Below the pieces are notes generated by a model that was not told where the DNA came from, made no database searches, and saw nothing but the letters and a program-made list of their open reading frames with translations. DNA of 56,908 nt, taken from IMG/VR virus record IMGVR_UViG_3300027881_000016, positions 1 to 56,908 of that record. One strand, 5' to 3'. The stretch comes from a virus. Its lineage: Duplodnaviria > Caudoviricetes. Numbering within the stretch: position 1 is the first letter of the stretch; the number at the start of each line of letters is the position of its first letter. The translations under genes and the position numbers were made by a program. Of this stretch, positions 30,569-44,197 are shown piece by piece.

Positions 30569-32365
30569 TTATGCCGCCATTGCGTTATCGCTGCTTTTGT
30601 TACCGGTTACGTAACCAGCTAGCTTCTTCTTCCACCCTTCGCCTTTGCTTTTCGGCTTACCAGCTCCAGAGTGAGATTTGCCAGCTATCATTTTGCCAAT
30701 CCACGCAGCGGCGTCCACGCGGTCGTCTTTTACACCGGATGGGAAGCGCAACAACTCGTTCATGTAGTCGTCAACCCACAGAGCACCTTCTGGCCAAAAC
30801 ACTTTTCCGTGCGCCATCATGCCCTGAATAATGCGCGCTCGTAGCTCCTTGTCCTGCTTGCCGGGTGGGAGCTCGTCTACGAACAAGTCGTAGATCTTCT
30901 CTTCCCGCATGCGATTCTCAAGGAACGTGTCAATAGTAAGCGATATCTGCCCTTTTTCCAAGCCAAACTGTCGTGGATGGTGTTTCCTGTGGATCTCAAA
31001 CATGACATCGATGATCTCTTTGGCATCCCACCGCCCACGGTATTCTTCTATGATGTAGATGTTTCCATCAGCGGCCAGGCCGGCAACAAGGAACACAGTC
31101 CAGTCAGCGTGGTCCTTCTTAGAGATAGCAAGGTCTCCAGCGCAGTATATGTCCAAAAACTCGGGTGGTGCGCCTTTGTACATCCGGAAGTGCTTCTTCT
31201 GAAAGTAAGCGCCTTCCTCGACCTGCGGATTCTGCTGATAGAGGGCCGCGAAGTCGCGAGGGGCTAGCGCGCGTTTAATTTTGCGCAGCGCTTTGAGCGA
31301 ATAACGCTCTGGATGCAAAGCCTCACCTTTGAGGCGATACGCTTCATCCTGCGTTGCGATCGCGGGAAAATCAATCACCTTCCAGCGGTCAGCGTCTTCC
31401 GGCCACTCGCCATCTTCCGAAGTGAGCATCTCTTTCTCGGCTTCGCGCATCTCATTGAGCAACCAACCGGATAAGTCGTCATCATGCCATCGCGTCTGGA
31501 TAATCAGGATGCCAGCACCGGGAGCCAGCCGGGTGTAGGCCGTTGAACTATACCAAGACTTCGCTGTCTCCCGGATAGTCTGGGACTCAGCCTCGTCGCG
31601 GTTTTTGACGGGGTCGTCGATAAGAAAAATGTGCGCGCCGCGCCCGGTTATCGGGCCGCCGACGCCGGCCGCCAACACACCGCCACCGGTTCGCTTCTCC
31701 TTGTCATAGTCGAAGAGCGACCAGCGCTCAACGGCTTCATTCTTCTTGGTAACACCAAGGTTACCGAACAGTAGGTGGTAATCCGGCGTACGAATCAATT
31801 CCTGGATTTTGCGCGAAAAGTCCATCTGCAAGGACTGCGCGTACGACGTATTAATGAACTCGTGGTGCGGGTGATTCCCAAGATGCCATGCCGGGTAGTA
31901 CTGCGACGCGATCATGGACTTGCCATGCCGGGGCGGCACGGTAATCATCAGTCGAGGCGACTCCTCGGCGATAACATCCTCGGAAAACTGCATCAGGGCC
32001 TCACAGATCATCTTGTGGACCCATCCGGCCTTGTAATTGGGCTCATAGCGCTTGATGAAGGCCAACAAATAGCGTTTTGCGAGCTCGCGCTTGTAAACTT
32101 CCTGCTGAGCCTGCTTTTCCCGGGTCAATGCGCGCGTTTTGGCCCTCTGCGGCTCCCTTTTCTTCGCCGCGCGCCGGTGTGTCGGCGCCTGCCGTGCTTT
32201 TCGGCGCTTCGTCGCGGCCTTTTTGGCGGTTTCTTGGGTGGCCGCGAGCAATTTCTTGCCTTCCCGGTCAATGCACTCGATGCATTCGTCGGTATCGGAG
32301 TAGTGAGACGTGTCCTTCTCACATTTCTCGCATTTAGCTCGGTGCGTCGCGCCCATCTTCACCAT
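30569..32365 (-). CDS. terL: terminase large subunit
   Basis: PPRHGKS Walker A, ITGRGA..IDDP-K, QTRWH-DDL-G, ALYQQ-P, FPSG--DD-VDA nuclease motif. Confidence 0.95.
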   Translation of the reverse strand: MVKMGATHRAKCEKCEKDTSHYSDTDECIECIDREGKKLLAATQETAKKAATKRRKARQAPTHRRAAKKREPQRAKTRALTREKQAQQEVYKRELAKRYLLAFIKRYEPNYKAGWVHKMICEALMQFSEDVIAEESPRLMITVPPRHGKSMIASQYYPAWHLGNHPHHEFINTSYAQSLQMDFSRKIQELIRTPDYHLLFGNLGVTKKNEAVERWSLFDYDKEKRTGGGVLAAGVGGPITGRGAHIFLIDDPVKNRDEAESQTIRETAKSWYSSTAYTRLAPGAGILIIQTRWHDDDLSGWLLNEMREAEKEMLTSEDGEWPEDADRWKVIDFPAIATQDEAYRLKGEALHPERYSLKALRKIKRALAPRDFAALYQQNPQVEEGAYFQKKHFRMYKGAPPEFLDIYCAGDLAISKKDHADWTVFLVAGLAADGNIYIIEEYRGRWDAKEIIDVMFEIHRKHHPRQFGLEKGQISLTIDTFLENRMREEKIYDLFVDELPPGKQDKELRARIIQGMMAHGKVFWPEGALWVDDYMNELLRFPSGVKDDRVDAAAWIGKMIAGKSHSGAGKPKSKGEGWKKKLAGYVTGNKSSDNAMAA

Positions 32366-33096: not shown

Positions 33097-33662
33097 TCCT
33101 CTATGTCATACTTCTTGAAGAGTTCCTGTAGCTCAGCCTTTACTTCCGGGTGAGAATAGTAGCCTTGTTGTTCTATAGTGTGCAAGCGATGACAGTTGGA
33201 ACACAGTATACGGCACTTACGTACCTCCTGTCGAAGCGCTTCGCTTGACCACGCGTATCCTTTGGACAGTATCTGCGCAATGGTGAAACTCTTAGTGCTC
33301 GGATCCAAGTGGTCAAACTCAAGCAAACGCGGGTCGCGCTCCCCACATTTCTGACACCCCTTGTCGGCGGCGTAGCGCAAACAGAGTATCCGTGCCCGTC
33401 GGCGGGCACACCTTTTTTGTTGTGCGGCGTTCTCATGTATGCGCGGCCGGCCGAGCGTCTTGCCCTCCGGCGCTACCCAATTAGGGTCGGCGACCCGGGC
33501 GTTACGCACGCCACGGCAGTCATTGCATTCCGGTCGGTAGCCGCGGGGGTCGGAGGCAGGGAACGTGCCCCGCTTCACCTTAAGAGTGAAACGGGTCAGG
33601 TTCTTGTTCCCGCGGCAGCGCGAACAGACCTTATAACTGTTCTTGCGCAGCTTACCCGGCAT
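33093..33662 (-). CDS. HNH endonuclease
   Basis: CQKCG...LEFDHLDP...C-ILCSNCHR-HT; extra N-terminal CxxC pairs; near terminase. Confidence 0.85.
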   Translation of the reverse strand: MPGKLRKNSYKVCSRCRGNKNLTRFTLKVKRGTFPASDPRGYRPECNDCRGVRNARVADPNWVAPEGKTLGRPRIHENAAQQKRCARRRARILCLRYAADKGCQKCGERDPRLLEFDHLDPSTKSFTIAQILSKGYAWSSEALRQEVRKCRILCSNCHRLHTIEQQGYYSHPEVKAELQELFKKYDIEE

Positions 33663-33976
33663 CAGGTGCGGCTGTCGATGTCCTTGCCAACCCGGTTCAT
33701 GTAGCCGAAGTCACCACCGCGAATCTGTGCTGATACGGAGTACTCTTCCCACATCTTGATCAGCATATTTATCGGGTGTTGGTCAGCAGCACAGGCGAGG
33801 TGCAAAACTTCTTTCGCCCCCGGCATACTGAACGGCCAGATGCGGTATATGAAGTCGCCCTCGCCTACGACATTTTTACCGGCCGATTCAGGGATAATGC
33901 GCATCCTGCCAGCTTCCGGTCCGCCAATAAATCCGACCTTTCGTCCTACTTTGATATTTTTGCTCATCCGAAACAC
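33662..33976 (-). CDS. hypothetical protein
   Basis: 104-aa ORF with FIGGP-AG motif. Confidence 0.6.
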   Translation of the reverse strand: MFRMSKNIKVGRKVGFIGGPEAGRMRIIPESAGKNVVGEGDFIYRIWPFSMPGAKEVLHLACAADQHPINMLIKMWEEYSVSAQIRGGDFGYMNRVGKDIDSRT

Positions 33977-34001
33977 CCTGATCCTTTTCTCTTTTTAGTT
34001 C

Positions 34002-34367
34002 TTACAGGCTGATTACAAAGTTCGTAGGGGACCCCGGGGTACGTGGCCCCACAGTAAAATTTTCAGTGTTACTTGGCCCCGACTCCTCCCCGTTAAGCGC
34101 TGTGACCGTCAGGTGACAGACGTGCGTGCCCTCGCCGAGCGGCGCAAAGTCCACCACTCGGCTGTGCGTACCGATGATACTGTCGAGAATCACAAACGGC
34201 TCTGCAGCGCCATTGCAGTACATACTGTAAAAGTCCAAGTCCTGCTCCAGCAACTCGTCGCCATTCTCCCACTCCGTGGGTGGTACGAATGATATTGAGA
34301 AGTCCAGCGCAAGCGTTAACGATGCCAGCAGCAACACCACCGCTGTGGCTACCACAGGTTTGTTCAT
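34002..34367 (-). CDS. exported fibronectin type III-like protein
   Basis: Sec signal MNKPVVATAVVLLLASLTLA; PPT---NG--L, VTALNG-ESGPSN, P--P-NF. Confidence 0.7.
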   Translation of the reverse strand: MNKPVVATAVVLLLASLTLALDFSISFVPPTEWENGDELLEQDLDFYSMYCNGAAEPFVILDSIIGTHSRVVDFAPLGEGTHVCHLTVTALNGEESGPSNTENFTVGPRTPGSPTNFVISL

Positions 34368-34588
34368 AGCAGGTTCTCCATGATGCATTGATCCAACTTG
34401 CTATTGTACCATTTGCGTAAGAGCTCCTGATGCTTCGCACGGACGCTATCGGGCGCTGGGCGATATCTTGTCCGAGGTTTTGTAACACTAGCTGTAGCAC
34501 TAGGTGCTATAGCACTCGGTAACTTAGTGACTATGACCGCAGCTACGGAGGCGGCTGCGAGTCCACGCAGAAATCCGCGGCGATTCAC
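34364..34588 (-). CDS. small protein with twin-arginine (Tat) signal
   Basis: GTG start, NRRGFLRGLAAASVAAV. Confidence 0.6.
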   Translation of the reverse strand: MNRRGFLRGLAAASVAAVIVTKLPSAIAPSATASVTKPRTRYRPAPDSVRAKHQELLRKWYNSKLDQCIMENLL

Positions 34589-34676
34589 AACACCATCCAG
34601 AAGAACAGCGCCAGGCACACGATCCAGATGAAGGCTTCGAAGAAGGGACTTGGTGACTTAGTGCTAAGTGACCCTG

Positions 34677-34868
34677 TCACTCAGTGATACCCTTAACGGC
34701 CCACATCACGGCCTCCTCGAGTTTGGCCGCGGCCATATCTGACTCGCGTTTGCCGATGTCGAGCATGCAGTACAACTCGAAGGCCTTGTTCTTGATATTG
34801 TCGATGCGATCTTTCTCGCTGGGATTGAGTTCCCGGTACTCGGGACGGAAGGGGTTGGATCGTGGCAT
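34677..34868 (-). CDS. Acb2/Tad1-like hairpin protein (candidate immune-signal sponge)
   Basis: YRELNPSEKDRIDNIK and RE--MA-AKLEEAVMWAVKGI motifs; AAGGAG RBS. Confidence 0.65.
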   Translation of the reverse strand: MPRSNPFRPEYRELNPSEKDRIDNIKNKAFELYCMLDIGKRESDMAAAKLEEAVMWAVKGITE

Positions 34869-35345
34869 GATAAATGCTCCTTGGCTATTGCGTGGAAATA
34901 GGCGCTTTAACGCACCATAAGTGGGTTAAAGTACGATAAATCAATCACTATAGTGATCTGGGCGTAAATTTTTGTTAGAAAAATATAGCGTTTTTCTAAC
35001 AGATTTCTGTCATTACAGAAATTACTGAAAGGACAGACTTATTCCCGGACGACCAGCGTCGTAGAATGGGGCTATCATACCTGACGGGGATATCATATGC
35101 AAATGTGGAAAAAAGTGACGACCAGCAGGTAGGGGTGGTACTAAGTGACTCCGTCACTTGGCACTTCGTGACTGAAAACTCAGTCACTAAGCGCCGAGAA
35201 TCTGAACCATCAGACTGCCAAGGAACCTTCCCAGCCTGACAGAAATTCTAAGCGCTTTAATGACTTAGGGTCAAGAGCGAAGTGACTCAGTTCCTGAGTT
35301 ACTTGGTGACACAGTAGTACTACGTACTACCGAACCAAAAACAAA
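34869..35345. promoter_or_regulatory. non-coding divergence region between arms with clustered GTGAC/GTCAC motifs (candidate genome end/packaging/control region)
   Basis: Strand switch; no credible ORF; repeated AGTGAC/GTCACT and palindromes. Confidence 0.55.
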
Positions 35346-35346
35346 A

Positions 35347-35369
35347 CGACTGCTTACGCAGTCGGTGCC
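35347..35369 (+). repeat. early-region hairpin repeat 1 (left arm truncated)
   Basis: CGACTGC-TTAC-GCAGTCG-GTGCC. Confidence 0.8.
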
Positions 35370-35405
35370 TAGAGCTCAGTGTCTTTAACGTAAGTGGAGT
35401 ACATC

Positions 35406-35714
35406 ATGAGCATCTACACCGTGTTAGCTTCGATGGGCATCGAGATCGACGGCGAGATCGTGGACATCCAAGAGATGGGCGAGTACGGCACGTTCGACGA
35501 CGCCATGCGCGCATGCGTCGAGTTCTGGAACACGTCGGACGCCATCCATCCTGACATCGGCAGCTGGGTCGAGTCCTCCAAGGGCGACACCAAGTACTAC
35601 CCTGAAGACTACTGTCTTCAGGACGGTGTGCTCGTCATTGGCCGCACCAATGACTCGCAAGAAGCCGAAGACCATGCCGAGTTCCTCGCCATGTCCTACG
35701 GCGCACCGTTCTAG
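35406..35714 (+). CDS. acidic hypothetical early protein
   Basis: GGAG RBS, ATG 35406, C-ending codon bias. Confidence 0.75.
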   Translation: MSIYTVLASMGIEIDGEIVDIQEMGEYGTFDDAMRACVEFWNTSDAIHPDIGSWVESSKGDTKYYPEDYCLQDGVLVIGRTNDSQEAEDHAEFLAMSYGAPF

Positions 35715-35721
35715 TCACCAT

Positions 35722-35755
35722 CTGGGCATCAACCGCTTACGCGGTTGGTGCTCAG
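35722..35755 (+). repeat. early-region hairpin repeat 2
   Basis: CTGGGCATCAACCGC-TTAC-GCGGTTGGTGCTCAG. Confidence 0.95.
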
Positions 35756-35789
35756 TTCTCGGTGTCATTCACCTCAACTGGAGTAAGCC

Positions 35790-36080
35790 ATTACACCTGA
35801 CCGCAACGAGGCGTCGAAACGCTTATGCTCGCCCCTCACACTCGAAGATGGTCTCATCATCGAGCGTGCCGCTTATCGCCGCAATGGCGAGTCCCTCGCC
35901 ATTCTCGCTTCCATGATCTACGCCGGCAACGCCGACGCATACATCATGAGCGAGCGCGTCGAGATTGCTGCCTGCGACCGTTGGTCAGCAGAGCAAGCTA
36001 TGCGCGAAGAGCTCGAAGATCAAGAACGTTGGGATTGCCAGTACGGCTGGGATCCCGCTGACGACTGCTACTCCGAGTAG
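35790..36080 (+). CDS. hypothetical early protein (96 aa) with apparent ATT start
   Basis: GGAG-TAAGCC-ATT; open frame ITPDRNEASKRLCSPLTLEDGLII...DCYSE* with neighbour-like codon bias; in-frame TAA just upstream. Confidence 0.6.
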   Translation: MTPDRNEASKRLCSPLTLEDGLIIERAAYRRNGESLAILASMIYAGNADAYIMSERVEIAACDRWSAEQAMREELEDQERWDCQYGWDPADDCYSE

Positions 36081-36086
36081 CATGCT

Positions 36087-36120
36087 CTGGGCATCAACCG
36101 CTTACGCGGTTGGTGCTCAG
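36087..36120 (+). repeat. early-region hairpin repeat 3
   Basis: Identical to repeat 2 over 34 nt. Confidence 0.95.
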
Positions 36121-36153
36121 TCTTTATTGTCTTTTAACTGAAGGAGTAGCACC

Positions 36154-36441
36154 GTGGCACATTTCTTGAAGATCAGTAGCATCGAACTTTTCCAGTCCCC
36201 GATGCACGAAGAGAACGGCGTGTCTATTGGCGACAATGACACATACCTCTTGTCCAGGACCGCTGCCGCAGTCCTGAACAAAGCTCGCCCAGCTGGCCGC
36301 AGCTTCACTGCTAACAGCTGGACCAACAAGAAGTGGTTTGACAAGTTCGTCAAACACACTTCTTTCCGTCCTGAGTACATTCTCTTTGCCCGTGGCAAAG
36401 TGAATCAGGACCGTTGGTATGCTCGCGCCATCTCGTTCTAA
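36154..36441 (+). CDS. hypothetical early protein
   Basis: AAGGAG RBS, GTG start. Confidence 0.75.
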   Translation: MAHFLKISSIELFQSPMHEENGVSIGDNDTYLLSRTAAAVLNKARPAGRSFTANSWTNKKWFDKFVKHTSFRPEYILFARGKVNQDRWYARAISF

Positions 36442-36448
36442 CCACTCG

Positions 36449-36482
36449 TTGGGTATCGACCGCTTACGCGGTCGGTGCCCAA
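36449..36482 (+). repeat. early-region hairpin repeat 4
   Basis: TTGGGTATCGACCGC-TTAC-GCGGTCGGTGCCCAA. Confidence 0.95.
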
Positions 36483-36516
36483 TGTTCATTGTCTTTCACA
36501 CTGAATGGAGATAGTC

Positions 36517-36807
36517 ATGGATATGATCACCCAAGGATTCATAGCAGCGGCCACAGTCCTGTGGCTCCTTAGCTACATTGGGTTCCGCAAAGTGTTCCAC
36601 TTTGCGTTTCTGGTCGACGTTGTTTGCACCGGCACGTTCGTATTCGCCTTTGCAGGCTCATACGCCGGCATGATGACTGGCGTCATCGCCGGACTCATGG
36701 TCTCGATGTTCATCAAGACCGGTCGTGCCGTTGCCGGCTCGCTCAAGCCTTCGCTTGTGCGCGCCAAAGGCAACGTCCTCCCAACCCTCGTTTGGGTCAA
36801 GAGCTAA
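36517..36807 (+). CDS. small integral membrane protein
   Basis: GGAG RBS; three hydrophobic segments. Confidence 0.75.
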   Translation: MDMITQGFIAAATVLWLLSYIGFRKVFHFAFLVDVVCTGTFVFAFAGSYAGMMTGVIAGLMVSMFIKTGRAVAGSLKPSLVRAKGNVLPTLVWVKS

Positions 36808-36813
36808 CCCCCC

Positions 36814-36851
36814 GATTGGGCATCAATCGCTTACGCGATTGGTGCTCAGTC
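36814..36851 (+). repeat. early-region hairpin repeat 5
   Basis: GATTGGGCATCAATCGC-TTAC-GCGATTGGTGCTCAGTC. Confidence 0.95.
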
Positions 36852-36880
36852 TTTATTGTCTTTTCTACAAGGAGTACAGC

Positions 36881-37162
36881 ATGAACAGCAACGCAATGTT
36901 CCTCATTTACCTCGCAGAGCTAATTCGGATATGGCTGCGTTGGCTCATCATTGGCGCGATCATCATGGTAGTGATGTTCGGCTTTGGGCCTGCCGGCGCC
37001 TTCAGCTCTTGGTTCGCATACCACGGCTTCGTCGCTTGCGCCGGCGCCGCTACCTACACCGGCATGGTTGCCGACGTAGGCTACATGATAGGCAAGGCTG
37101 CCTATCGTGGTATCCGCAAGGGCGTAGGCTTCTTCGGTGAGCTCGTCGAGACGGCCTCGTGA
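36881..37162 (+). CDS. small membrane protein
   Basis: AAGGAG RBS, MNSNAMF start, hydrophobic helices. Confidence 0.75.
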   Translation: MNSNAMFLIYLAELIRIWLRWLIIGAIIMVVMFGFGPAGAFSSWFAYHGFVACAGAATYTGMVADVGYMIGKAAYRGIRKGVGFFGELVETAS

Positions 37163-37386
37163 GCGGCACCGAGAAGCTGATCAATGAGTCGCGTATGCGA
37201 CGCATTGATCTACTCACTGAGATCGCCGGCCTTTCAGACCGTGCGCTCTCAGCTCGTTTCACCGTAGTCAACGGTGCCTACCTTGAGGTAGCCAACGATT
37301 ACACTGACTACGGTGAGCCCGCCCCCCGCGAGCCGGAAGAGCTGCAACTCTTGCTGAACGCAATGGTTGCTCGGCTCGCGAGTTAA
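37159..37386 (+). CDS. hypothetical protein
   Basis: GTGA overlap with upstream stop. Confidence 0.65.
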   Translation: MSGTEKLINESRMRRIDLLTEIAGLSDRALSARFTVVNGAYLEVANDYTDYGEPAPREPEELQLLLNAMVARLAS

Positions 37387-37457
37387 CACGCCGCGTGTCC
37401 CTGCCGGTGGACAATAGCAGGGAAAGTACCCTTTCCACTCACCTTTGGAGGTGATTC

Positions 37458-37661
37458 ATGGCTCATCAAGAGCTGCACGCTTACGTAGAGGGCACAAACC
37501 TCTACACCGACATGCGCATGCGCATAGAACTCGCACAGACTAGTCTGCGCGAGGTCATTGCCGTGGCCGGCAATTTCGACGCGGATGACCGGTTGATTCA
37601 CATCAACGGTAACCCCGTCGGCATGCGCGAGCTACACAAGTGGCACTCCATACTTGGGTAG
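37458..37661 (+). CDS. hypothetical protein
   Basis: GGAGGT RBS. Confidence 0.75.
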   Translation: MAHQELHAYVEGTNLYTDMRMRIELAQTSLREVIAVAGNFDADDRLIHINGNPVGMRELHKWHSILG

Positions 37662-37671
37662 CACCCCCCAT

Positions 37672-37702
37672 AGGCTATCCCCGGCTCACGCCGGGGGTGC
37701 CT
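37672..37702 (+). repeat. early-region hairpin repeat 6
   Basis: AGGCTATCCCCGGC-TCAC-GCCGGGGGTGCCT. Confidence 0.9.
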
Positions 37703-37739
37703 TTACTTCAGTGCCTTTTAACCTGTCAAGGAGACAGAT

Positions 37740-37928
37740 ATGAGCAACACCCCTAAGTACGCTGTATACACCATCCGCGATCGCGGCGAAGACCAGAAGG
37801 CTTTCTGGCTGCGCATCGGCAGCGGCTTCGTGAACAAAGATGGCAGCATCAATGTTCTCTTGGACGCTTTGCCTACTGATGGCAAGCTCCACTTGCGTGT
37901 GCCGGCTCCGAAGGACGCTGAGTCCTAG
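37740..37928 (+). CDS. small beta protein (W-RIG--F-NKDGS-N--LDALP family; possibly ssDNA-binding)
   Basis: AAGGAG RBS; motif recalled from phage/plasmid hypothetical proteins. Confidence 0.7.
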   Translation: MSNTPKYAVYTIRDRGEDQKAFWLRIGSGFVNKDGSINVLLDALPTDGKLHLRVPAPKDAES

Positions 37929-37933
37929 CACAC

Positions 37934-37971
37934 ATATGGGTATCGGCCGCTTACGCGGTCGGTGCCCATAT
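37934..37971 (+). repeat. early-region hairpin repeat 7
   Basis: ATATGGGTATCGGCCGC-TTAC-GCGGTCGGTGCCCATAT. Confidence 0.95.
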
Positions 37972-38000
37972 CTCAGTGTCACTCACAACTGGAGCTCGCT

Positions 38001-38183
38001 ATGAGCAGTACCATTCGTTGTTACCAATGCGAACAGAAGGTCAACTACCTGTTCGCAGACAGCCGCTGCAAAGACTGCACGCGCCTCACCCCCGCTGAAG
38101 TGCGCGGTGATTTCGTCTACTGCAGTTATTGCAGTGACTTCGGCTGTCACAAGTGTGACTCCACTCAACCTAACCTCTCGTAA
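38001..38183 (+). CDS. small zinc-finger protein
   Basis: Four CxxC pairs; GGAG RBS. Confidence 0.7.
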   Translation: MSSTIRCYQCEQKVNYLFADSRCKDCTRLTPAEVRGDFVYCSYCSDFGCHKCDSTQPNLS

Positions 38184-38193
38184 GGAGAACGAC

Positions 38194-38361
38194 ATGGAAA
38201 TTATGTTCATCGTGTACAACATCAAACTGCACATCCGTACGGCTGCTTTTGCCTCTTACGATGATGCTGCTGCATACATACGCACCCGCTCTTATCCCAA
38301 GGGCTATCTCGTCGAAACTGTTGAGGAAGACGAAGACCTCTTCCACACCATTAACCGCTAA
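38194..38361 (+). CDS. hypothetical protein
   Basis: TAAGGAG RBS fused to upstream stop. Confidence 0.7.
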   Translation: MEIMFIVYNIKLHIRTAAFASYDDAAAYIRTRSYPKGYLVETVEEDEDLFHTINR

Positions 38362-38371
38362 GGAGAACGCT

Positions 38372-38689
38372 ATGATGAATCTCAACAACATCTCAATCAA
38401 GATCCACGGGGTCGGCCCAGGCCGACCAACCGTGTCCTTGATTCGCATCTTCCGTGACTTTCACGGATGCTCGCTCACGCAGGCCAAGGAAGTCGTCGAA
38501 GACGTGTTCCCCGTCACCGACGACGATCTCGCCTATCCCTCGATAATGCGCGTCAACCTGCTTGGTGATGACCAAGCACTCGGTCGACTCGCACACCTCG
38601 TTCATAGCTCTTCAATGTTCTCTTTCGAGCTCATTGATCGCTTGAACTTTCACGGCGCTGCCCTGAAAGCAAAAGGTTGGCTCAGCTGA
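38372..38689 (+). CDS. protein with ribosomal protein bL12 C-terminal-like domain
   Basis: VSLIRIFRDFHGCSLTQAKEVVE resembles the bL12 CTD motif VIK-VR--TGLGLKEAK-LVE. Confidence 0.55.
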   Translation: MMNLNNISIKIHGVGPGRPTVSLIRIFRDFHGCSLTQAKEVVEDVFPVTDDDLAYPSIMRVNLLGDDQALGRLAHLVHSSSMFSFELIDRLNFHGAALKAKGWLS

Positions 38690-38693
38690 ACCT

Positions 38694-38730
38694 TGCAGGC
38701 ATTCCACGGCTTACGCCGTGGGTGCCTGTA
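38694..38730 (+). repeat. early-region hairpin repeat 8
   Basis: TGCAGGCATTCCACGGC-TTAC-GCCGTGGGTGCCTGTA. Confidence 0.95.
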
Positions 38731-38761
38731 CTTCAGTGTCACTCATCACAAGGAGACAGTA

Positions 38762-39076
38762 GTGATTACAGTAGGCAACAAGCGGCATGGTGCAACCGGT
38801 GAATACATCGGTCGGCCTTCGCCACTCGGCAATCCATTCCCGGCAGGGCCGGTGCATGGTACCCGCGATGAAGTCATCGCTAAGTATCGCGCATGGCTGA
38901 CTGACATCTGGAATTCAGGTGGCCTGAATCCTCAGATGACAGAACTGTTCAGACTCGCGGACCTCGCCCTGGCGGGCGACGTCACGCTCGTATGCTGGTG
39001 TGCCCCTAAAGCATGCCACGGTGATGTAGTTAAGGAGTTCATTGAGCTCATCAACAAAGGGAGACCCGCAGCATGA
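38762..39076 (+). CDS. DUF4326 family protein
   Basis: YIGRPSPLGNPF...R-EVIAKY...LVCWCAPKACHGDV. Confidence 0.9.
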   Translation: MITVGNKRHGATGEYIGRPSPLGNPFPAGPVHGTRDEVIAKYRAWLTDIWNSGGLNPQMTELFRLADLALAGDVTLVCWCAPKACHGDVVKEFIELINKGRPAA

Positions 39077-39264
39077 AGATCGTTCGTACGAGCCCGTTCT
39101 CGGGCGAAACAAACGTCATGGAGATCGATGTGACACCTAGCCAGCTTACAGCTTGGCAGAATGGCACACTGATCCAAAACGCCATGCCGCACCTGTCGGC
39201 AGATGAACGTGAGTTCATCATGACCGGCATCACTCCAACCGAATGGAATGAAACATTCGGTTGA
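39073..39264 (+). CDS. phage hypothetical protein
   Basis: LIQNAMPHLSADEREFIMTGITP-EW motif; ATGA overlap. Confidence 0.75.
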   Translation: MKIVRTSPFSGETNVMEIDVTPSQLTAWQNGTLIQNAMPHLSADEREFIMTGITPTEWNETFG

Positions 39265-39270
39265 TCGCAA

Positions 39271-39306
39271 TGCAGGTATCCACGGCTCACGCCGTGGGTG
39301 CCTGTA
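39271..39306 (+). repeat. early-region hairpin repeat 9
   Basis: TGCAGGTATCCACGGC-TCAC-GCCGTGGGTGCCTGTA. Confidence 0.95.
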
Positions 39307-39335
39307 CTTCAGTGTCATTAACAAAGGAGATTGAC

Positions 39336-39887
39336 ATGACTGATTACTATGCTGGCATTGGTTCCCGTCAGACGCCCATGAACACGCTCATCATGATGCG
39401 CGAGGCAGCAACAAGCCTCGAGATCATGGGCTTCAAACTGCGCAGCGGTGGTGCTGCTGGCGCAGATTCAGCCTTCGAGCAGGGCGTCACGAACCCAGAT
39501 AATATGGACATTTATCTGCCGTGGTCTAGCTTCAACAAGAACCCTTCATCTCTGAGTGTAATTTCAGGTGAAGCGTTCGTTATGGCTTCGCAGTTCCACC
39601 CTGCATGGGAGCGTTGCAGTGTTGCCGCGCGAAAGTTCCACGCTCGGAACTGCTACCAAGTGCTTGGCTTCACGCTTGACGTGCCGGCCATGTTCGTTAT
39701 CTGCTGGACCCCCGGTGGCGCTATAACTGGCGGCACTGGCCAAGCGTTGCGTATCGCGCAACACCATAACATCCCCATCATCAACCTCGGTGATGGAGAC
39801 TGGAAGCTTGACGATATCATTCAAGCAGTCGAAGGCATTCACATGTCCGCAGACCAAGCTTCCATCACCAAGCACGTTCCGTTCTAA
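39336..39887 (+). CDS. SLOG-superfamily (DprA/Smf-like Rossmann) protein
   Basis: YAGIGSR-TP, LRSGGA-GAD-AFE, ARN--QVLG, VICWT...GGTGQA-RIA. Confidence 0.85.
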   Translation: MTDYYAGIGSRQTPMNTLIMMREAATSLEIMGFKLRSGGAAGADSAFEQGVTNPDNMDIYLPWSSFNKNPSSLSVISGEAFVMASQFHPAWERCSVAARKFHARNCYQVLGFTLDVPAMFVICWTPGGAITGGTGQALRIAQHHNIPIINLGDGDWKLDDIIQAVEGIHMSADQASITKHVPF

Positions 39888-39899
39888 GGAGAGCGCTTT

Positions 39900-40346
39900 A
39901 TGATCCATAAGACCGGCGATATGCTCGCCAACCTCGTTAGTGGTGACATCTATCTCGTCACCACTAACAGCTACATCCGTAAGGATGGGGCTCTCGTCAT
40001 GGGTCGCGGTGCTGCCAAACAGCTCGCGACCATGTTCCCCCGCATACCGTATCTCCTCGGCGATCGCATCGATCACCTCGGAGAGTACAACGTCGGTGTG
40101 CTGACGCAAACCAACGAGCCGTTCCTGTCGTTGGGAGCGTTCCAAGTGAAGTTCCATTTCGGCGATGCCGCCGACCTGGAACTCATCACTCGGAGTCGCG
40201 ATGAGCTCCATAAACTGGCCTGTGAAGATGGACGTGTATTCCACGTCAACTTCCCCGGCATTGGCAATGGTCGTCTGAAGTACGACGACGTGTTGCCAAT
40301 CATGGAAGACCTCCCAGACAACGTGTGTGTCTGGACATTTGCGTAA
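39900..40346 (+). CDS. macrodomain (ADP-ribose binding/hydrolase) protein
   Basis: GD...VTTN...VMGRG-AKQ...FP, PGIGNG-L motifs. Confidence 0.85.
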   Translation: MIHKTGDMLANLVSGDIYLVTTNSYIRKDGALVMGRGAAKQLATMFPRIPYLLGDRIDHLGEYNVGVLTQTNEPFLSLGAFQVKFHFGDAADLELITRSRDELHKLACEDGRVFHVNFPGIGNGRLKYDDVLPIMEDLPDNVCVWTFA

Positions 40347-40356
40347 GGAGAACGAC

Positions 40357-40635
40357 ATGATCGCTGTACCAATCAAGGAAGACTACACTATGGCCCGCGC
40401 CCCATACTGGGGCTGGCTCATAGCCATTATCGTAATGAACGCAATGCTGCCATATGAAGCAGGCATCCTCGCTATATTTCTGCTGGTCGGTCTTGTGTTT
40501 ATCACATACGTTCGAGTGAAGAACATAGGGTGGCATGGAGCTTGGACGCTCTGCTTATTTCTCCCGTTCTTCAGCTTCTTCATCGGCTTCTTCCCTAGTA
40601 AGAAGCCGCTGTCCCTCGTAGGGGAACGCTTATGA
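40357..40635 (+). CDS. DUF805-like membrane protein
   Basis: R-PYW..., RVKNIGWHG-W-L--F-P; hydrophobic. Confidence 0.65.
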   Translation: MIAVPIKEDYTMARAPYWGWLIAIIVMNAMLPYEAGILAIFLLVGLVFITYVRVKNIGWHGAWTLCLFLPFFSFFIGFFPSKKPLSLVGERL

Positions 40636-40808
40636 GCATGCAGCTCGTTCACACTTCCTACCACGTCATTCGTGACGTGGATGGGAAGGTAATGCTCACC
40701 ACTCACGATTTCCATCTTGCAAAGATGACGCAAATCGACCTTTGGATTCACAGCATGGCGTGTCATATCGACACGTCCACTTGGCACAGAGAGGTACCAT
40801 CATCATGA
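40632..40808 (+). CDS. small His-rich hypothetical protein (58 aa)
   Basis: Manually translated MSMQLVHTSYHVIRD...; ATGA overlaps at both ends. Confidence 0.55.
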   Translation: MSMQLVHTSYHVIRDVDGKVMLTTHDFHLAKMTQIDLWIHSMACHIDTSTWHREVPSS

Positions 40809-41119
40809 AAATCTTTATTACGCTCGCTACGCTCGCGCTCTTTACCGTTGTAGTGCCACCGGCTCACGCCGGTGACGCAACAATTCGGCTGCAAGAAATT
40901 ACAGCCGAAAGTTGCGCAGTTGCTGTTGTCCTGGACGGACAACATCAACACTACAACTGGTTCGCTGCGCGGTCCGGGTTTAACGAGAAGCTGTTTGATC
41001 TGCTGCTCGAATTCACAATCGAAGATCTCACTGACGCGAGACTTCGTCTTTCAACCTCCGATTCGAATCATCGTGAGGCTGAAGAGTGCATAACCCTGAA
41101 GACCGAACTTGCAGGGTAA
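40805..41119 (+). CDS. exported protein with Sec signal peptide
   Basis: MKIFITLATLALFTVVVPPAHA signal. Confidence 0.7.
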   Translation: MKIFITLATLALFTVVVPPAHAGDATIRLQEITAESCAVAVVLDGQHQHYNWFAARSGFNEKLFDLLLEFTIEDLTDARLRLSTSDSNHREAEECITLKTELAG

Positions 41120-41135
41120 TCCCTGCAAGAAAGAA

Positions 41136-41171
41136 GGTAGGTATCCACGGCTCACGCCGTGGGTGCCTATT
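41136..41171 (+). repeat. early-region hairpin repeat 10
   Basis: GGTAGGTATCCACGGC-TCAC-GCCGTGGGTGCCTATT; preceded by a separate hairpin CTTGCAGGG-TAAT-CCCTGCAAG. Confidence 0.95.
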
Positions 41172-41203
41172 GTTTTGTGAACCAATAACCAGAGGAGAAT
41201 TAT

Positions 41204-41650
41204 ATGGTTCTAAAAACGGTGTCTGTTGATTCAGGCACAGACAAGCAAGTCGCCTTCATGAAGAATGAAGCTGCGCGGAAATGGCCCTCAACTGCTGATC
41301 CGCTAGACATCATTCTTAAGATCGAAGAAGCGGCATGCAGGTACCTTGAACGAACGCAATACGTCCCACCGGACGAGCGTGAGTTCATTTCTTGTTACAT
41401 TAACATTCGCTTAAATGGAGAACATCATGTTCAACGAAAACACAGCAGTACCCGACGCGCCGGCCGGCGAGTCAGAAATGGATCGCGGCGCCCCGTCCAC
41501 GATCGTGGCACAAGCCGCCTCGGAGATCATCCCGGAGCCAAGTGTCTCCTCGATCGCTCCTCTTCCATGGTACCTCGACATGAAGTACCAGTGGACACCG
41601 AATGCGAACGGTGGGAACCGCTTAGTGCCGCAGGACAATTACGTCCGTGA
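41204..41650 (+). CDS. hypothetical protein (3' half overlaps next gene; extent uncertain)
   Basis: GAGGAG RBS. Confidence 0.5.
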   Translation: MVLKTVSVDSGTDKQVAFMKNEAARKWPSTADPLDIILKIEEAACRYLERTQYVPPDEREFISCYINIRLNGEHHVQRKHSSTRRAGRRVRNGSRRPVHDRGTSRLGDHPGAKCLLDRSSSMVPRHEVPVDTECERWEPLSAAGQLRP

Positions 41651-42200
41651 CGTACTTGTCGAAGGCGACCTGATCATCACCGCGGCAGCGAAGGATTTCG
41701 TTGCCAAGAACAGCGGTGACATGATCGCAGCGAAGCTGCACGTTAAGGCCAAGATCGATGAAATGCAACGGCTTAACGGCATCTTCACCAGCGGTATCGA
41801 AGGCAAGCATGTCCTTCGCGACCAACTCGAACGACTTGTGCTAGCGCGCAAGATCGTCGGCTCATCCGAGATGAGCATGCAACACCGTCTCACGAATGCG
41901 AGACTGCATGGTTGGGATCTCGAGAAGTCCAAGCAGTACGATGGCTACAAGTCAGCCAAGGAAGCCCGCGATCGCTGGGCGGCTGAAGCTTGCTTCTTCG
42001 AGTACGTGGTACGCGAACTGACCGACGGTGAGATCATTCACAATGACCTCGCCGCGCAGATCGCAACGCGCGTAGGCTATCTCATCAAAGATGAGGCCTA
42101 CGAAGAAGGTCGCAACGTCCTTAACCCGAAACCTCGGGTTCAGGAAGGCGTAGCTCAGCCCGAAATGAGCAAGGAAGAGATGCGCCTTGCTACGGCATAG
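41427..42200 (+). CDS. hypothetical protein (257 aa)
   Basis: GGAG RBS, strong codon bias, ends just before terminator. Confidence 0.8.
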   Translation: MFNENTAVPDAPAGESEMDRGAPSTIVAQAASEIIPEPSVSSIAPLPWYLDMKYQWTPNANGGNRLVPQDNYVRDVLVEGDLIITAAAKDFVAKNSGDMIAAKLHVKAKIDEMQRLNGIFTSGIEGKHVLRDQLERLVLARKIVGSSEMSMQHRLTNARLHGWDLEKSKQYDGYKSAKEARDRWAAEACFFEYVVRELTDGEIIHNDLAAQIATRVGYLIKDEAYEEGRNVLNPKPRVQEGVAQPEMSKEEMRLATA

Positions 42201-42233
42201 TCTCTGGTGGTACGTACATTGTACGTACATCTT

Positions 42234-42270
42234 GGGGAGTGGGCACTTCGGTGCCTGCTTCCCTTTTTTT
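42234..42270 (+). terminator. Rho-independent terminator closing the early region
   Basis: GGGGAGTGGGCAC-TTCG-GTGCCTGCTTCCC-TTTTTTT. Confidence 0.9.
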
Positions 42271-42340
42271 GCTCACACAACGGGTGCCTAGCACCCTTTC
42301 TTTTTCTCAACTAACCCGGAGGATTAACCGGCCCGCGCTT

Positions 42341-44197
42341 ATGGATAATTCTTTCATCGATTACGAAACCTTCTGGGGCGTGAAGTACAGCCTCCGTGCC
42401 CAGGGCATGTCCTATACTGATTACATCCTCGACGATCGTTTTCAGATTCATGGCGCCAGCGTCGCCGTGAATAAGGACACCCCTGTTTTTTTACGCGGAG
42501 ATGACCTAAAGGCCTGGGTCAGGGAAATCTCCCAGCGGGAGATGCAACTCGTCTGTCACAACAACCTGTTTGATGGCTTCATCACCAGTTGGGTGATGAA
42601 GGCTCGTTTTACTCGCTATTTCTGTACGCTCGCCATGGTCGACGCGCTCTATCAAGGAGCCATCGGCCGCGGTCTGGACGAATGCATGAAGATGTTGCTC
42701 GGCCGCGAAGGCAAGAGCGACATCCTAGCTCGAACAAAGAACAAACGCTCCGAGGACTTTACGCCCGAAGAGTGGCACGACATGGCTCTCTACGCGAATG
42801 AGGATCTGGCGTCAACGCAAGATCTTTTCTATCAGTATAGTGGGTGCTTACCGCAACTCGAACACGACATCATGGACACCGTTCTGCGGATGTTCATAGA
42901 GCCCAAACTGGAGTTTGACGAACCCACTCTATTGAAAGCCGTGAAAGAAGCCGATGACGACCGCAACCAACGGATCCTGGCCGCGGTCAATCGGGGAGCA
43001 ACTTTGGAAATACTCAAGGGCAACAAACTGTTTCCCGAGTTCTTACGTGAACGTGACATCTACGTGCCGATGAAGCCTAACCCCAAAGGCATCATGATCC
43101 CCGCGTTTGCGAAAACAGATGTTGGCTTCCAACAAATGCTCGAGAGCAAAGACGACGAGATCAGAGACCTAGCCCAAGGCCGGCTAGCTGTGAAAAGTAC
43201 GCAGGCCACGACACGCGCGTACCGATTTAAGAAACTGCACGATCTGATCGGCCTGTTCCCCGTCGCATACAACTACGCTCGAGCTCACACATGGAGACTG
43301 TCTGGCGCCAATAAAGTCAACGCCGCGAACCTCAAACGTAAGAGCCTTCTCAGGCTGTGCATTGTCGCGCCCGACGGCTCAAGACTCGGGGTATCAGACG
43401 CCTCACAAATCGAGTGCCGTGCGGATGGCTACATTGCAGGGCAAGAAACTCTCCTCCAATTGTTCAGAGACAAGAGAGATCCCTACAACGATATGGCCTC
43501 TGACATCTTCGAGAAACCCATCGATCGGAAGGGCAATGCAGATCACTTCTTCGAAGGGTTCCTCGGAAAGACTGCTGTGCTCGGTCTTGGATTCCAGATG
43601 GGAGGAGACAAATTTAAGTGGACTGTGGAGACCAAGGCTAAGGTCGACCTCGAGATAGACATCGACTACGACTTGGATGAAGCACATCGCGTTGTCTCAG
43701 TCTACCGAGGAAAGAACTGGAAGATCGTCAAATTCTGGGGCCACTGCAAGAACATGCTCTACGATATGATTCGCAACCGTGACTCCACTTGGTATTACCC
43801 TGATGGCACGCTCGAAATACGCGGCAAGGAAAACAAAATCTATTTCCCCAACGGCACCTTCCTTTACTATCCGATGCTAGCGTATGATGACGGCCAGTTC
43901 ACATATATAGTGAAACAAGGCAGCCGATACGTTAATAAGAAGATCTACGGTGGCCTGCTCTGCGAGAACATCGTACAGCACTTCGCCAGGAACATTACTT
44001 CTGCCCACATGGTTCAGATTTCGAAACGCTACCCGGTCGTCCTACACACCTACGACGAGAATGTGGCATTGATTCCTGAGACCGAGGCAGAAGAAGGCAC
44101 TCAATGGATGATAGACCTTATGAAGGTTCCGCCTGCATGGGCGGCTTCCATTCCTTTAGACGCAGAGGGCGGTCACGCCCGGGAGTATTCGAAATGA
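42341..44197 (+). CDS. family A DNA polymerase with 3'-5' exonuclease domain (divergent motifs)
   Basis: Exo DYET, HNNLFD, YANED; motif A DASQIECR; motif B GKTAVLGLGFQMG; ENIVQ; motif C TYDE. Confidence 0.9.
   Translation: MDNSFIDYETFWGVKYSLRAQGMSYTDYILDDRFQIHGASVAVNKDTPVFLRGDDLKAWVREISQREMQLVCHNNLFDGFITSWVMKARFTRYFCTLAMVDALYQGAIGRGLDECMKMLLGREGKSDILARTKNKRSEDFTPEEWHDMALYANEDLASTQDLFYQYSGCLPQLEHDIMDTVLRMFIEPKLEFDEPTLLKAVKEADDDRNQRILAAVNRGATLEILKGNKLFPEFLRERDIYVPMKPNPKGIMIPAFAKTDVGFQQMLESKDDEIRDLAQGRLAVKSTQATTRAYRFKKLHDLIGLFPVAYNYARAHTWRLSGANKVNAANLKRKSLLRLCIVAPDGSRLGVSDASQIECRADGYIAGQETLLQLFRDKRDPYNDMASDIFEKPIDRKGNADHFFEGFLGKTAVLGLGFQMGGDKFKWTVETKAKVDLEIDIDYDLDEAHRVVSVYRGKNWKIVKFWGHCKNMLYDMIRNRDSTWYYPDGTLEIRGKENKIYFPNGTFLYYPMLAYDDGQFTYIVKQGSRYVNKKIYGGLLCENIVQHFARNITSAHMVQISKRYPVVLHTYDENVALIPETEAEEGTQWMIDLMKVPPAWAASIPLDAEGGHAREYSK

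Follow-up and report, generated by a model that had tools for sequence, protein, structure and literature searches.

A covarying hairpin family at gene-cassette borders in the putative early region of uncultured marine podophages

The virus record IMGVR_UViG_3300027881_000016 (Duplodnaviria; Caudoviricetes), analysed here over its whole length of 56,908 nucleotides (hereafter the window, or G000 among the contigs compared), carries among its small plus-strand genes an array of ten intergenic modules of ~70 nt, in which a hairpin is followed by a short conserved box, the ribosome-binding motif GGAG and a start-codon position. The hairpins covary in sequence, recur in other uncultured marine phages, match no described RNA family and lie at the joints of a region with variable gene content. 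It is proposed, with a probability of roughly 45%, that the module serves as intercistronic RNA punctuation, through leaky termination, 3'-end protection or processing, joined to a standard translation leader, and that its copies have been reused as recombination joints.

A ten-copy array of covarying hairpins

The initial annotation had described ten intergenic hairpins, and the array proved to be real. The strict pattern GCTYACGCNNNNGGTGC has ten exact matches in the window, all on the plus strand between 35352 and 41166, and a covariance model recovers the ten copies at 57.7-75.4 bits. With up to two mismatches the pattern gives 20 matches against 3.9 +/- 2.3 expected (none of 100 shuffles reaches 20), and a reversed control pattern gives none. 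Run over the window, the model also upholds the confinement of the copies to the early region, its other matches being reverse-strand echoes of array sites apart from one. That one, the next plus-strand match, is an intragenic 7-bp hairpin with a TCAC loop (40853-40878, 17.8 bits), which lies within the signal-peptide coding part of the open reading frame (ORF) 40805-41119 and is either a chance structure or a remnant.

When folded as RNA, nine of the ten copies reach -24.8 to -31.9 kcal/mol (z -3.7 to -8.5), and the first, h1 (35347), forms only a 7-bp inner hairpin (-12.2 kcal/mol, z -1.7). The GGYATC arm of the consensus first proposed is found in most copies, but h1 has no such arm, and h8 and h6 carry GGCATTC and GGCTATC, respectively. 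In the window alignment 91% of cells are paired, 7 of 15 pairs are changed on both sides and the covariation score is reached by 0 of 500 shuffles, while sliding the partner column lowers pairing to 29-44%. The family alignment (25 cores, 24 distinct, from 6 contigs) is 88% paired with 12 of 15 pairs doubly changed, and again none of 500 shuffles attains its score, which supports the claim that structure rather than sequence is selected. Rfam returned only a tRNA at gathering thresholds, and the best match of a permissive scan of 34800-42400 scored 23.5 bits against a gathering score of 114, so that no described RNA family accounts for the element. RNAalifold applied to the leader predicted the main hairpin alone, with no second conserved helix.

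Occurrence in related phages

The window comes from a linear IMG/VR record with a CheckV completeness estimate of 69%. Megablast against GenBank phages found no close relative; the nearest published phages are Pseudomonas KPP25 and phiR18, Acidovorax AP1 and Aeromonas phiA008, with portal identities of 34-38%. The covariance model found nothing at E < 0.1 in KPP25, AP1, phiA008 or MW202615 (0 of 4). The array is carried by a second IMG/VR contig, G001 (54,042 bp, 70% complete), where it lies between the divergent region and the DNA polymerase gene and shows six model matches at E < 0.001 and eight copies by inspection. As both array-carrying records are only ~70% complete, gene absences reported from them are provisional.

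A search for the locus through its DNA polymerase recovered G001 as the sole relative. Two pattern scans of IMG/VR returned 50 stretches, of which a single one, within G001, had a complementary stem, and 13 stretches, of which three are G001 and the remaining ten had no model match. A metagenome scan returned at least 120 stretches; 80 were fetched and 79 searched with the model (L096, which overlaps L095, was omitted), and seven loci gave matches. Four of these fragments, L086, L114, L129 and L162, were added to the family after filtering by model and by eye. L095, a near-identical variant of G001 (93-98% identical), was kept out of the alignment for that reason. Two were rejected: L085, with its hairpin inside a coding frame of an unrelated high-GC phage-like contig, and L132, with neither box nor ribosome-binding site. 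In a one-genome-per-species prokaryote collection, none of 18 pattern matches was a true copy and none had a complementary inner stem. These outcomes confine the family, as far as searched, to a small clade of uncultured marine phages, which are podophages unrelated to the T4 group. Proteins of the array-carrying lineages are 26-56% identical.

Conserved positions and the folding strand

The loop reads U-N-A-C in all 25 family cores, with position 2 alone varying. The closing C-G pair and the lower stem, in which GGYAUC pairs with GGUGCC, are near-invariant: 23 of 24 cores keep the A-U pair, and pair 8 is a U.G wobble in 21 of 24 and the reverse, G.U, in one. At pairs 10-14 variation is free but compensated. 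Written on the template strand, the loop GC-GTRA-GC given in the initial annotation holds for all ten window copies, but not across the family, where 7 of 24 cores have U-A as their second closing pair and TGAC also occurs as a loop.

Folding of the sense strand, suggested earlier from the mismatches, is borne out by counts over 13 core pairs and 22 distinct internal elements: 229 Watson-Crick, 46 G.U, 3 A.C and 8 other combinations. The 46 G.U pairs would be mismatches on the complementary strand, and the sense strand is therefore favoured. The loop matches the UNAC class of structured RNA tetraloops, presented in the cited account as mimics of GNRA folds (PMC5311481); on the opposite strand its variable position would be the third, a poorer GNRA fit. 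All array copies are co-oriented with the genes. The G.U excess, the loop and this co-orientation point to the sense transcript, most simply RNA, as the folding molecule, with single-stranded DNA of the sense strand being formally possible. For a double-stranded operator of a symmetric dimer, a covarying centre and consistently different half-sites are unnecessary.

Anatomy of the modules

By eye, GGTGCC is followed by a spacer of 9 nt (window, L086_a) or 8 nt (G001, L162, L129, L114) and then by a K-T-G box with T-M-A-C at its end; GGAG, ahead of the start codon, comes 11-18 nt later. Lineages have different boxes, GTGTCWYTMAC in the window and GTGRAYAATCAC in the G001 group, with h10 of the window having the G001 type. 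The gap from the upstream stop codon to the 15-bp core is 6-9 nt in eight copies and 17 nt in h10. The features of the ten modules are as follows, where bits are covariance-model scores and d is the terminator discriminant introduced further below.

35347..35405, plus strand: module 1 (h1); inner 7-bp hairpin CGACTGC-TTAC-GCAGTCG at 35347-35364, GGTGCC, 9-nt spacer, box CAGTGTCTTTAAC, GGAG; start codon 35406; 57.7 bits.
35720..35789, plus strand: module 2 (h2); 15-17-bp hairpin, core 35722-35755, -31.2 kcal/mol; box CGGTGTCATTCACC, GGAG; ATT at start-codon position 35790; 69.7 bits.
36087..36153, plus strand: module 3 (h3); 15-bp hairpin 36087-36120; U-rich tail TCTTTATTGTCTTTT, GGAG; GTG start 36154; 71.6 bits; d +10.8.
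36447..36516, plus strand: module 4 (h4); 17-bp hairpin 36447-36484; box CATTGTCTTTCAC, GGAG; ATG 36517 of the membrane protein common to relatives; 75.4 bits.
36814..36880, plus strand: module 5 (h5); 17-bp hairpin 36814-36851; U-rich tail, GGAG; ATG 36881; 65.8 bits; d +19.3.
37672..37739, plus strand: module 6 (h6); 13-14-bp hairpin with TCAC loop, 37672-37703, -24.8 kcal/mol; box CAGTGCCTTTTAAC, GGAG; ATG 37740; 63.5 bits.
37934..38000, plus strand: module 7 (h7); 17-bp hairpin 37934-37971, -31.9 kcal/mol; box CAGTGTCACTCAC, GGAG; ATG 38001; 71.3 bits.
38694..38761, plus strand: module 8 (h8); one-bulge hairpin 38694-38730; box CAGTGTCACTCATCAC, GGAG; GTG 38762 of the DUF4326 protein; 62.7 bits.
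39271..39335, plus strand: module 9 (h9); 16-bp hairpin with TCAC loop, 39271-39306; box CAGTGTCATTAAC, GGAG; ATG 39336 of the DprA/SLOG-like protein; 74.1 bits.
41136..41203, plus strand: module 10 (h10); 16-bp hairpin 41136-41171; G001-type box GTGAACCAATAACC, GGAG; ATG 41204; 57.9 bits.

One further intergenic region, without the family hairpin, was read directly and is possibly a decayed, alternative or variant module:

37387..37457, plus strand: a different hairpin and a G001-type box GGTGGACAAT.

The first copy is reduced to inner hairpin, 3' flank and box in the window, G001, L095 and L162, where no gene lies upstream of it, and its stems covary among lineages. The first five modules (35347-36814) are spaced at 362-375 bp, and each holds one unrelated gene of 93-102 codons; a search for paralogy among these five evenly spaced cassettes found none, blastp at E < 1 giving noise only. 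Genes within a cassette are tightly coupled, the stop codon overlapping TAAGGAG. At the start position 7 nt after GGAG, ATT is found in the window (35790) and ATC in G001 (L065 ~8966) and L095 (~2400), and the window frame at 35790-36080 is open for 96 codons; such ATT- or ATC-headed frames would be either near-cognate starts or decaying genes.

Genome layout and mosaic gene content

Structural genes occupy the minus strand from ~800 to 34,000. A divergent non-coding region (34,860-35,346) separates this block from small plus-strand genes (35,406 to 41,119), which are followed by DNA polymerase, exonucleases, a primase-helicase and two tRNAs. Judged from this layout, the 35.4-41.2-kb block would be the early region of the phage. 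The main structural features are:

4510-11043, minus strand: 2177-aa virion protein with a HELGH (zinc-peptidase-like) motif, its C-terminal part matching phrog_30152; no Pfam or PDB match was found for it.
25760-26872, minus strand: major head protein.
28284-30566, minus strand: portal.
30569-32365, minus strand: terminase.

The hairpins do stand at the joints of a gene-variable region, as had been claimed. Only five of the ~20 window early genes (36154, 36517, 38762, 41204 and 41427) have a G001 homologue, in collinear order, and the metagenome fragments show further reshuffling of early genes. A hairpin lies directly upstream of the membrane-protein gene in three of four lineages and of the 41204 family in all three (gene 41204 is conserved in G001 and L086, with the family hairpin upstream there too), and the DUF4326 gene has one either directly upstream or with one gene between. 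A ~70-nt module repeated in this way would offer homology for recombination and thereby give rise to the mosaic gene content among relatives. When relatives were compared for gene gain and loss, the mosaicism was evident. Two whole-gene indels distinguish G001 from L095; both are flanked by repeated ribosome-binding/start regions, and one falls within a module leader. Co-occurring contigs share the 3' end of h6 and then diverge, with matching sides of only 21-34 nt and hence weak, and contigs of three DNA runs break at h3, h9 and h10, which is a repeat effect.

Most of the cargo consists of ORFans. Small membrane proteins, already mentioned in the initial annotation, are several, and they are accompanied by a DUF4326 protein (E 1e-19), a DprA/SLOG-like protein (phrog_768, E 3e-54) and a phrog_335 protein; a counter-defence role for this cargo is our guess. 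The 36154 family is the one basic early protein conserved across lineages; its predicted structure is a moderate model (pLDDT 73.7), with no Foldseek match in PDB at E <= 0.001 and no Atlas hit. ORFs 41204-41650 and 41427-42200 overlap by ~220 nt in different frames, in G001 and L086 as well, and only the first ~75 residues of the former are conserved, so its tail could be explained by a frame artefact, by gene overlap or by frameshifting.

Relation to intrinsic terminators

A lenient terminator rule is passed by five of the ten copies in the window and two of the eight in G001; the earlier statement that the hairpins lack U-tracts thus holds for half of the window copies but fails for the other half. 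A discriminant of the d'Aubenton-Carafa type, used here with an energy model other than the original one, is positive for 7 of 26 family hairpins, whose values of +4 to +24 lie far below that of a strong terminator of the same phage, which serves as an internal reference:

42234..42270, plus strand: canonical intrinsic terminator with a 13-bp stem, TTCG loop and seven T; d +45.6.

It separates the last conserved early gene from the DNA polymerase gene, whose listed GTG start (42239) falls inside it; the true start is therefore probably further downstream.

In KPP25, early genes are separated by ordinary hairpin and T-tract terminators, three of which score -3, +19 and +48, and ahead of its first early gene an unrelated hairpin is followed by a window-type box. 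Within the clade, family hairpin and canonical terminator take each other's place at one junction: upstream of the 36154-family gene the window has h3, where G001, L095 and L162 have a canonical GC stem with a T-tract and, after it, a similar box. The slot of the family hairpin is therefore that of a terminator, yet, by sequence, most copies are predicted to be poor terminators. The very first early gene of the G001 group is followed by a strong canonical terminator (L065 8121-8141; L162 ~636-665). With no recognisable promoter downstream, this arrangement would imply read-through, antitermination or promoters of an unrecognised kind.

Proposed function

In the reading that we favour, host polymerase would start at one or more host-type promoters in the upstream divergent region and read the whole early block. 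Each hairpin would punctuate the early transcript: copies with a U-rich tail would stop part of the polymerases, and in all copies a stable 3' hairpin would block 3'-exonucleases once termination or an endonuclease has produced an end. From the conservation of lower stem and loop, a specific factor that recognises double-stranded RNA seems likely to be involved, host RNase III being the obvious candidate, and the box with GGAG would provide the same translation leader for every cassette, whatever gene follows. Processing or stabilising sites, one of the models of the initial annotation, thus survive as the best reading, with processing itself as a conditional part of it. The length of the array stems is comparable to that of the minimal E. 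coli RNase III substrate, whose product in the cited work is a 28-nt stem-loop (PMC1540722).

Support comes from sigma-70-like sites, whose distribution is that of one operon. The early block of G001 has a single one, TTGCTA-16-AATAAT, ~290 nt upstream of the first hairpin, which is also present in L095 and in similar form in L162. A scan of 33500-42500 found no plus-strand sigma-70-like site in any of the ten window modules, and a looser script (>=8/12) found sites at 38745 and 41175 only, both with the -10 on or at the start codon. The early promoter or promoters presumably lie in the following region:

34860..35346, no strand assigned: divergent regulatory region, with blocks and AAGTGAC/GTCACTT inverted repeats conserved in G001 and L162.

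Three inverted repeats with AAGTGAC/GTCACTT arms are found at window ~35133-35310 (also L065 7600-7760 and L162 100-330), and the blocks GGTACTAAGTGACTCCGTCAC and CAAGGAACCTTCCnAGnCTGACAGA of this region are conserved in three phage lineages; from their sequences, these elements look like operators or a structured leader. The stretch TTGGTGACACAGTAG (35302-35320) may resemble an SP6-type phage polymerase promoter. No SP6-type polymerase gene was found, and the stretch is probably part of the operator-like repeats. KPP25 has three tandem ~60-bp repeats in a large early intergenic region (L068 ~26600-26830; CCCGCGTGGCACTAAGGCTCCAGC...GTTACGAAATTTTTT...GATCGTGACAA), which may, by their sequence, be tandem early promoters.

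Several points weigh against this proposal. With only 7 of 26 hairpins positive, termination cannot be the function common to all copies, and the stems have no counterpart of the internal loop of T7 sites. They are also shorter than typical RNase III substrates, which in the cited accounts span two helical turns in E. coli (PMC1540722; PMC6212723), and h1 is far too short. Three features are left unexplained by a plain terminator or exonuclease barrier, namely a loop and a wobble-bearing lower stem that are conserved across lineages, the constant distance from hairpin to box, and a first copy that is short, covaries and has no gene upstream. E. coli RNase III, as characterised in the cited work, needs no conserved tetraloop (PMC1540722). 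These three features hint at a specific reader of the hairpin, which may be host RNase III or a phage protein not yet recognised, a polymerase being the least likely candidate; the partner gene could lie in the absent ~30% of either record.

Alternative explanations

The alternative that survives best, and that we nevertheless consider unlikely, is that the modules are composite terminator-promoter cassettes, in which the inner 7-bp hairpin, GGTGCC and box form a promoter and the outer stem terminates the previous unit. The reader would be either an unrecognised phage polymerase using a structured promoter in the style of phage N4, or host polymerase redirected by a phage factor. The head of the array is what such a model predicts, as the copy without an upstream gene is reduced to inner hairpin, 3' flank and box with covarying stems, and the hairpin-to-box distance is fixed (8 or 9 nt) where box-to-GGAG varies, as expected of promoter, start site and leader. 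Pair 8 being a wobble, every copy would moreover shrink to the same perfect 7-bp stem on the template strand. The terminator after the first early gene of G001-type phages, with no recognisable promoter downstream, fits the same model, and T4-type promoter early stem-loops (PeSLs) are described as a precedent for a stem-loop overlapping a promoter (PMC2839356).

Against it stand the absence of any correctly placed sigma-70-like site from the ten modules and the position of the only -10-like hexamer in G001-type modules, which ends 1-4 nt before GGAG, so that a transcript would start in or after the ribosome-binding site and lose it. Sigma-54-like and extended -10 readings, tried by eye and by script, were discarded because each fails in at least one of the two module types. 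With G.U pairs outnumbering A.C pairs 46 to 3, the non-template strand is favoured, and 4-nt loops on 13-17-bp stems are unlike N4 promoters. No T7-type RNA polymerase (PF00940) was found in either record, although the control for this search was uninformative, and the 2177-, 1317-, 1092- and 645-aa virion proteins gave no polymerase match in Pfam, PHROG or PDB and contain no DxDxD motif; the 1317-aa protein matches the 'virion-associated phage protein' 8jov. The hairpin-promoter model of the initial annotation thus lacks support. In its strongest form, with the inner hairpin, GGTGCC and box as a structured promoter or polymerase-loading signal and each cassette as an autonomous, portable transcription unit, it must be regarded as very improbable. 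If true, the modules would be plug-and-play expression cassettes for host-takeover genes, read by a polymerase, or by a factor redirecting host polymerase, of a kind that sequence searches do not yet recognise.

Next in standing, and likewise improbable, is the idea that a dedicated trans-acting factor uses hairpin and box as its RNA operator or loading site. In a regulon version, a phage-encoded or host protein would co-regulate translation or decay of all early cassettes; in a nut-like version, an antitermination factor would let polymerase pass internal terminators. A bound RNA might be expected to combine freely covarying pairs with fixed positions, as seen here in the loop (U, A and C), the closing C-G pair and the U.G wobble (21 of 24), and to keep a constant spacing to a single-stranded box. 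The order of leader hairpin, gene and strong terminator in G001, L095 and L162 resembles the lambdoid series of promoter, nut, gene and terminator. The ten sites, however, far exceed the usual number in antitermination systems. A single mode of recognition would sit uneasily with a GGUGCC that is paired in internal copies and single-stranded in the first. The analysis turned up no candidate binding protein, the 36154 family being without a fold match. The structured loop would suit such a factor, since UNAC loops are reported to mimic GNRA folds (PMC5311481), but the Nus/boxA form of antiterminator loading can be set aside: none of the ten boxes lies within two mismatches of boxA GYTCTTTAANA as given in the source (PMC5725501), and G001-type boxes differ again. 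At that tolerance boxA matches the window 71 times against 62.8 expected, which is chance level.

It is also possible, at still lower odds, that the hairpins are purely structural, acting as weak terminators or exonuclease barriers with no specific partner. Shared sequence would then be due to common ancestry, to gene conversion among copies and to exchange during co-infection, with the wobbles doing no more than keeping the DNA palindrome imperfect. Adjacent copies are indeed the most similar, h2 and h3 being identical in core and h8-h10 having a common inner stem; inner stems are mostly GGTC/GACC in G001 and window-like in L114, L086, L162 and L129, which suggests mixing, and a canonical terminator takes the place of the hairpin at one junction. 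Gene conversion, however, should homogenise whole elements, whereas six stem and three loop positions are fixed while pairs 10-14 covary within one genome. A wobble at the same pair in 22 of 24 cores and covariation of the first-copy hairpin in three lineages likewise speak against a purely structural role.

That the hairpins are single-stranded DNA sites for a recombinase or nuclease (attC-, REP- or IS200-like), by which cassettes would be actively shuffled, can hardly be credited: imperfect palindromes with one-strand G.T pairs at the cassette borders of a gene-variable region would suit them, but neither G000 nor G001 has a Y1 HUH transposase (PF01797) or tyrosine recombinase (PF00589) (searches positive in 6 of 14 and 14 of 14 control genomes), the 18 prokaryote-genome matches contain no true copy and no REP-like multicopy host repeat, the arms have no extrahelical bases or attC-type core sites, and the G001/L095 indels are bounded by ribosome-binding-site repeats rather than hairpins. 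Readings as CRISPR-repeat mimicry, Chi-like or nick sites were considered and provisionally set aside, the inner stem varying freely and only 5 nt being able to match.

Comparison with known systems

Intrinsic terminators resemble the array in having a G+C-rich stem-loop right after the stop codon, and some array copies have a U-rich tail. Most copies, however, have no adequate U-tract, and the stems are longer than the canonical terminator of the same phage and carry conserved sequence.

In T7 and T3, similar hairpins lie between the cistrons of the host-transcribed early operon, one of them ahead of the first gene. RNase III cuts at these sites and leaves a protective 3' hairpin on the upstream message; T7 sites comprise about two helical turns with an internal loop. 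The array is alike in its repeated intercistronic hairpins, including one before the first gene, but its stems of 13-17 bp are fully paired except for wobbles and capped by a conserved tetraloop.

The N4 virion RNA polymerase uses promoters with a 5-7-bp stem and 3-nt loop on the template strand, present in three copies. They share with the array small DNA hairpins ahead of early genes, and the inner stem of the array is a perfect 7 bp. The array differs in its 4-nt loop, ten copies and wobbles fitting the non-template strand, and no virion polymerase was detected in the ~70%-complete records.

Cluster K mycobacteriophages carry an oriented repeat, the start-associated sequence (SAS; ESAS for its extended inverted repeats), in 11-19 copies in the non-structural half of the genome. 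According to the cited description, SAS lies just upstream of the starts of unrelated genes, has an inverted repeat before about half of its copies, is absent from hosts and has no known function (PMC3203893). As an oriented multicopy repeat before the starts of unrelated genes that is absent from host genomes, it is close to the array. Departures in the ESAS arms do not support RNA pairing, and its authors favour DNA-binding proteins in the text cited; covariation in the array is strong by comparison, the sequences are unrelated, and SAS as described overlaps the ribosome-binding site itself (PMC3203893).

The closest likeness is to the PeSLs of T4-type phages. Their published descriptions concern a short composite intergenic module of upstream stop, stem-loop with G.T pairs, Shine-Dalgarno sequence and start, repeated many times in a gene-variable early region in front of ORFans (PMC2839356; PMC4122927). 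A consensus sigma-70 promoter with an AT-rich upstream region defines that module, which is stated to act as an attenuator or terminator and to provide homology for gene indels and swaps (PMC2839356; PMC4122927). PeSL stem-loops are runs of G/C, for which the accounts cited report no conserved loop or wobble (PMC2839356; PMC4122927). The array modules, by contrast, have no sigma-70 promoter, and they combine an invariant UNAC loop and a conserved lower stem with strict covariation.

From these comparisons, the module may act as a promoterless equivalent of the T4 PeSLs, or as a version of the T7 early RNase III sites built on another hairpin, a suggestion that we hold at somewhat under even odds. 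To call the array a categorically undescribed system would be an overstatement: the hairpin family itself is undescribed, but the architecture, a terminator-plus-leader cassette, is already known. Early 'host-takeover' regions hold the fastest-evolving phage genes, those for counter-defence included, and how new early genes are inserted and immediately expressed is poorly understood outside the T4 group. As no more than a leaky terminator with a leader, the module would be an ordinary feature; read by a dedicated factor, it would be a compact, portable RNA signal that insulates and co-regulates genes, an aid to annotating early regions of metagenomic phages and possibly a part for synthetic biology. 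Cassette logic like that of T4 would here be found in an unrelated clade of marine podophages, where it would rest on an RNA hairpin whose marks of specific recognition (UNAC loop, wobble pair and fixed distance to the box) are unusually clear.

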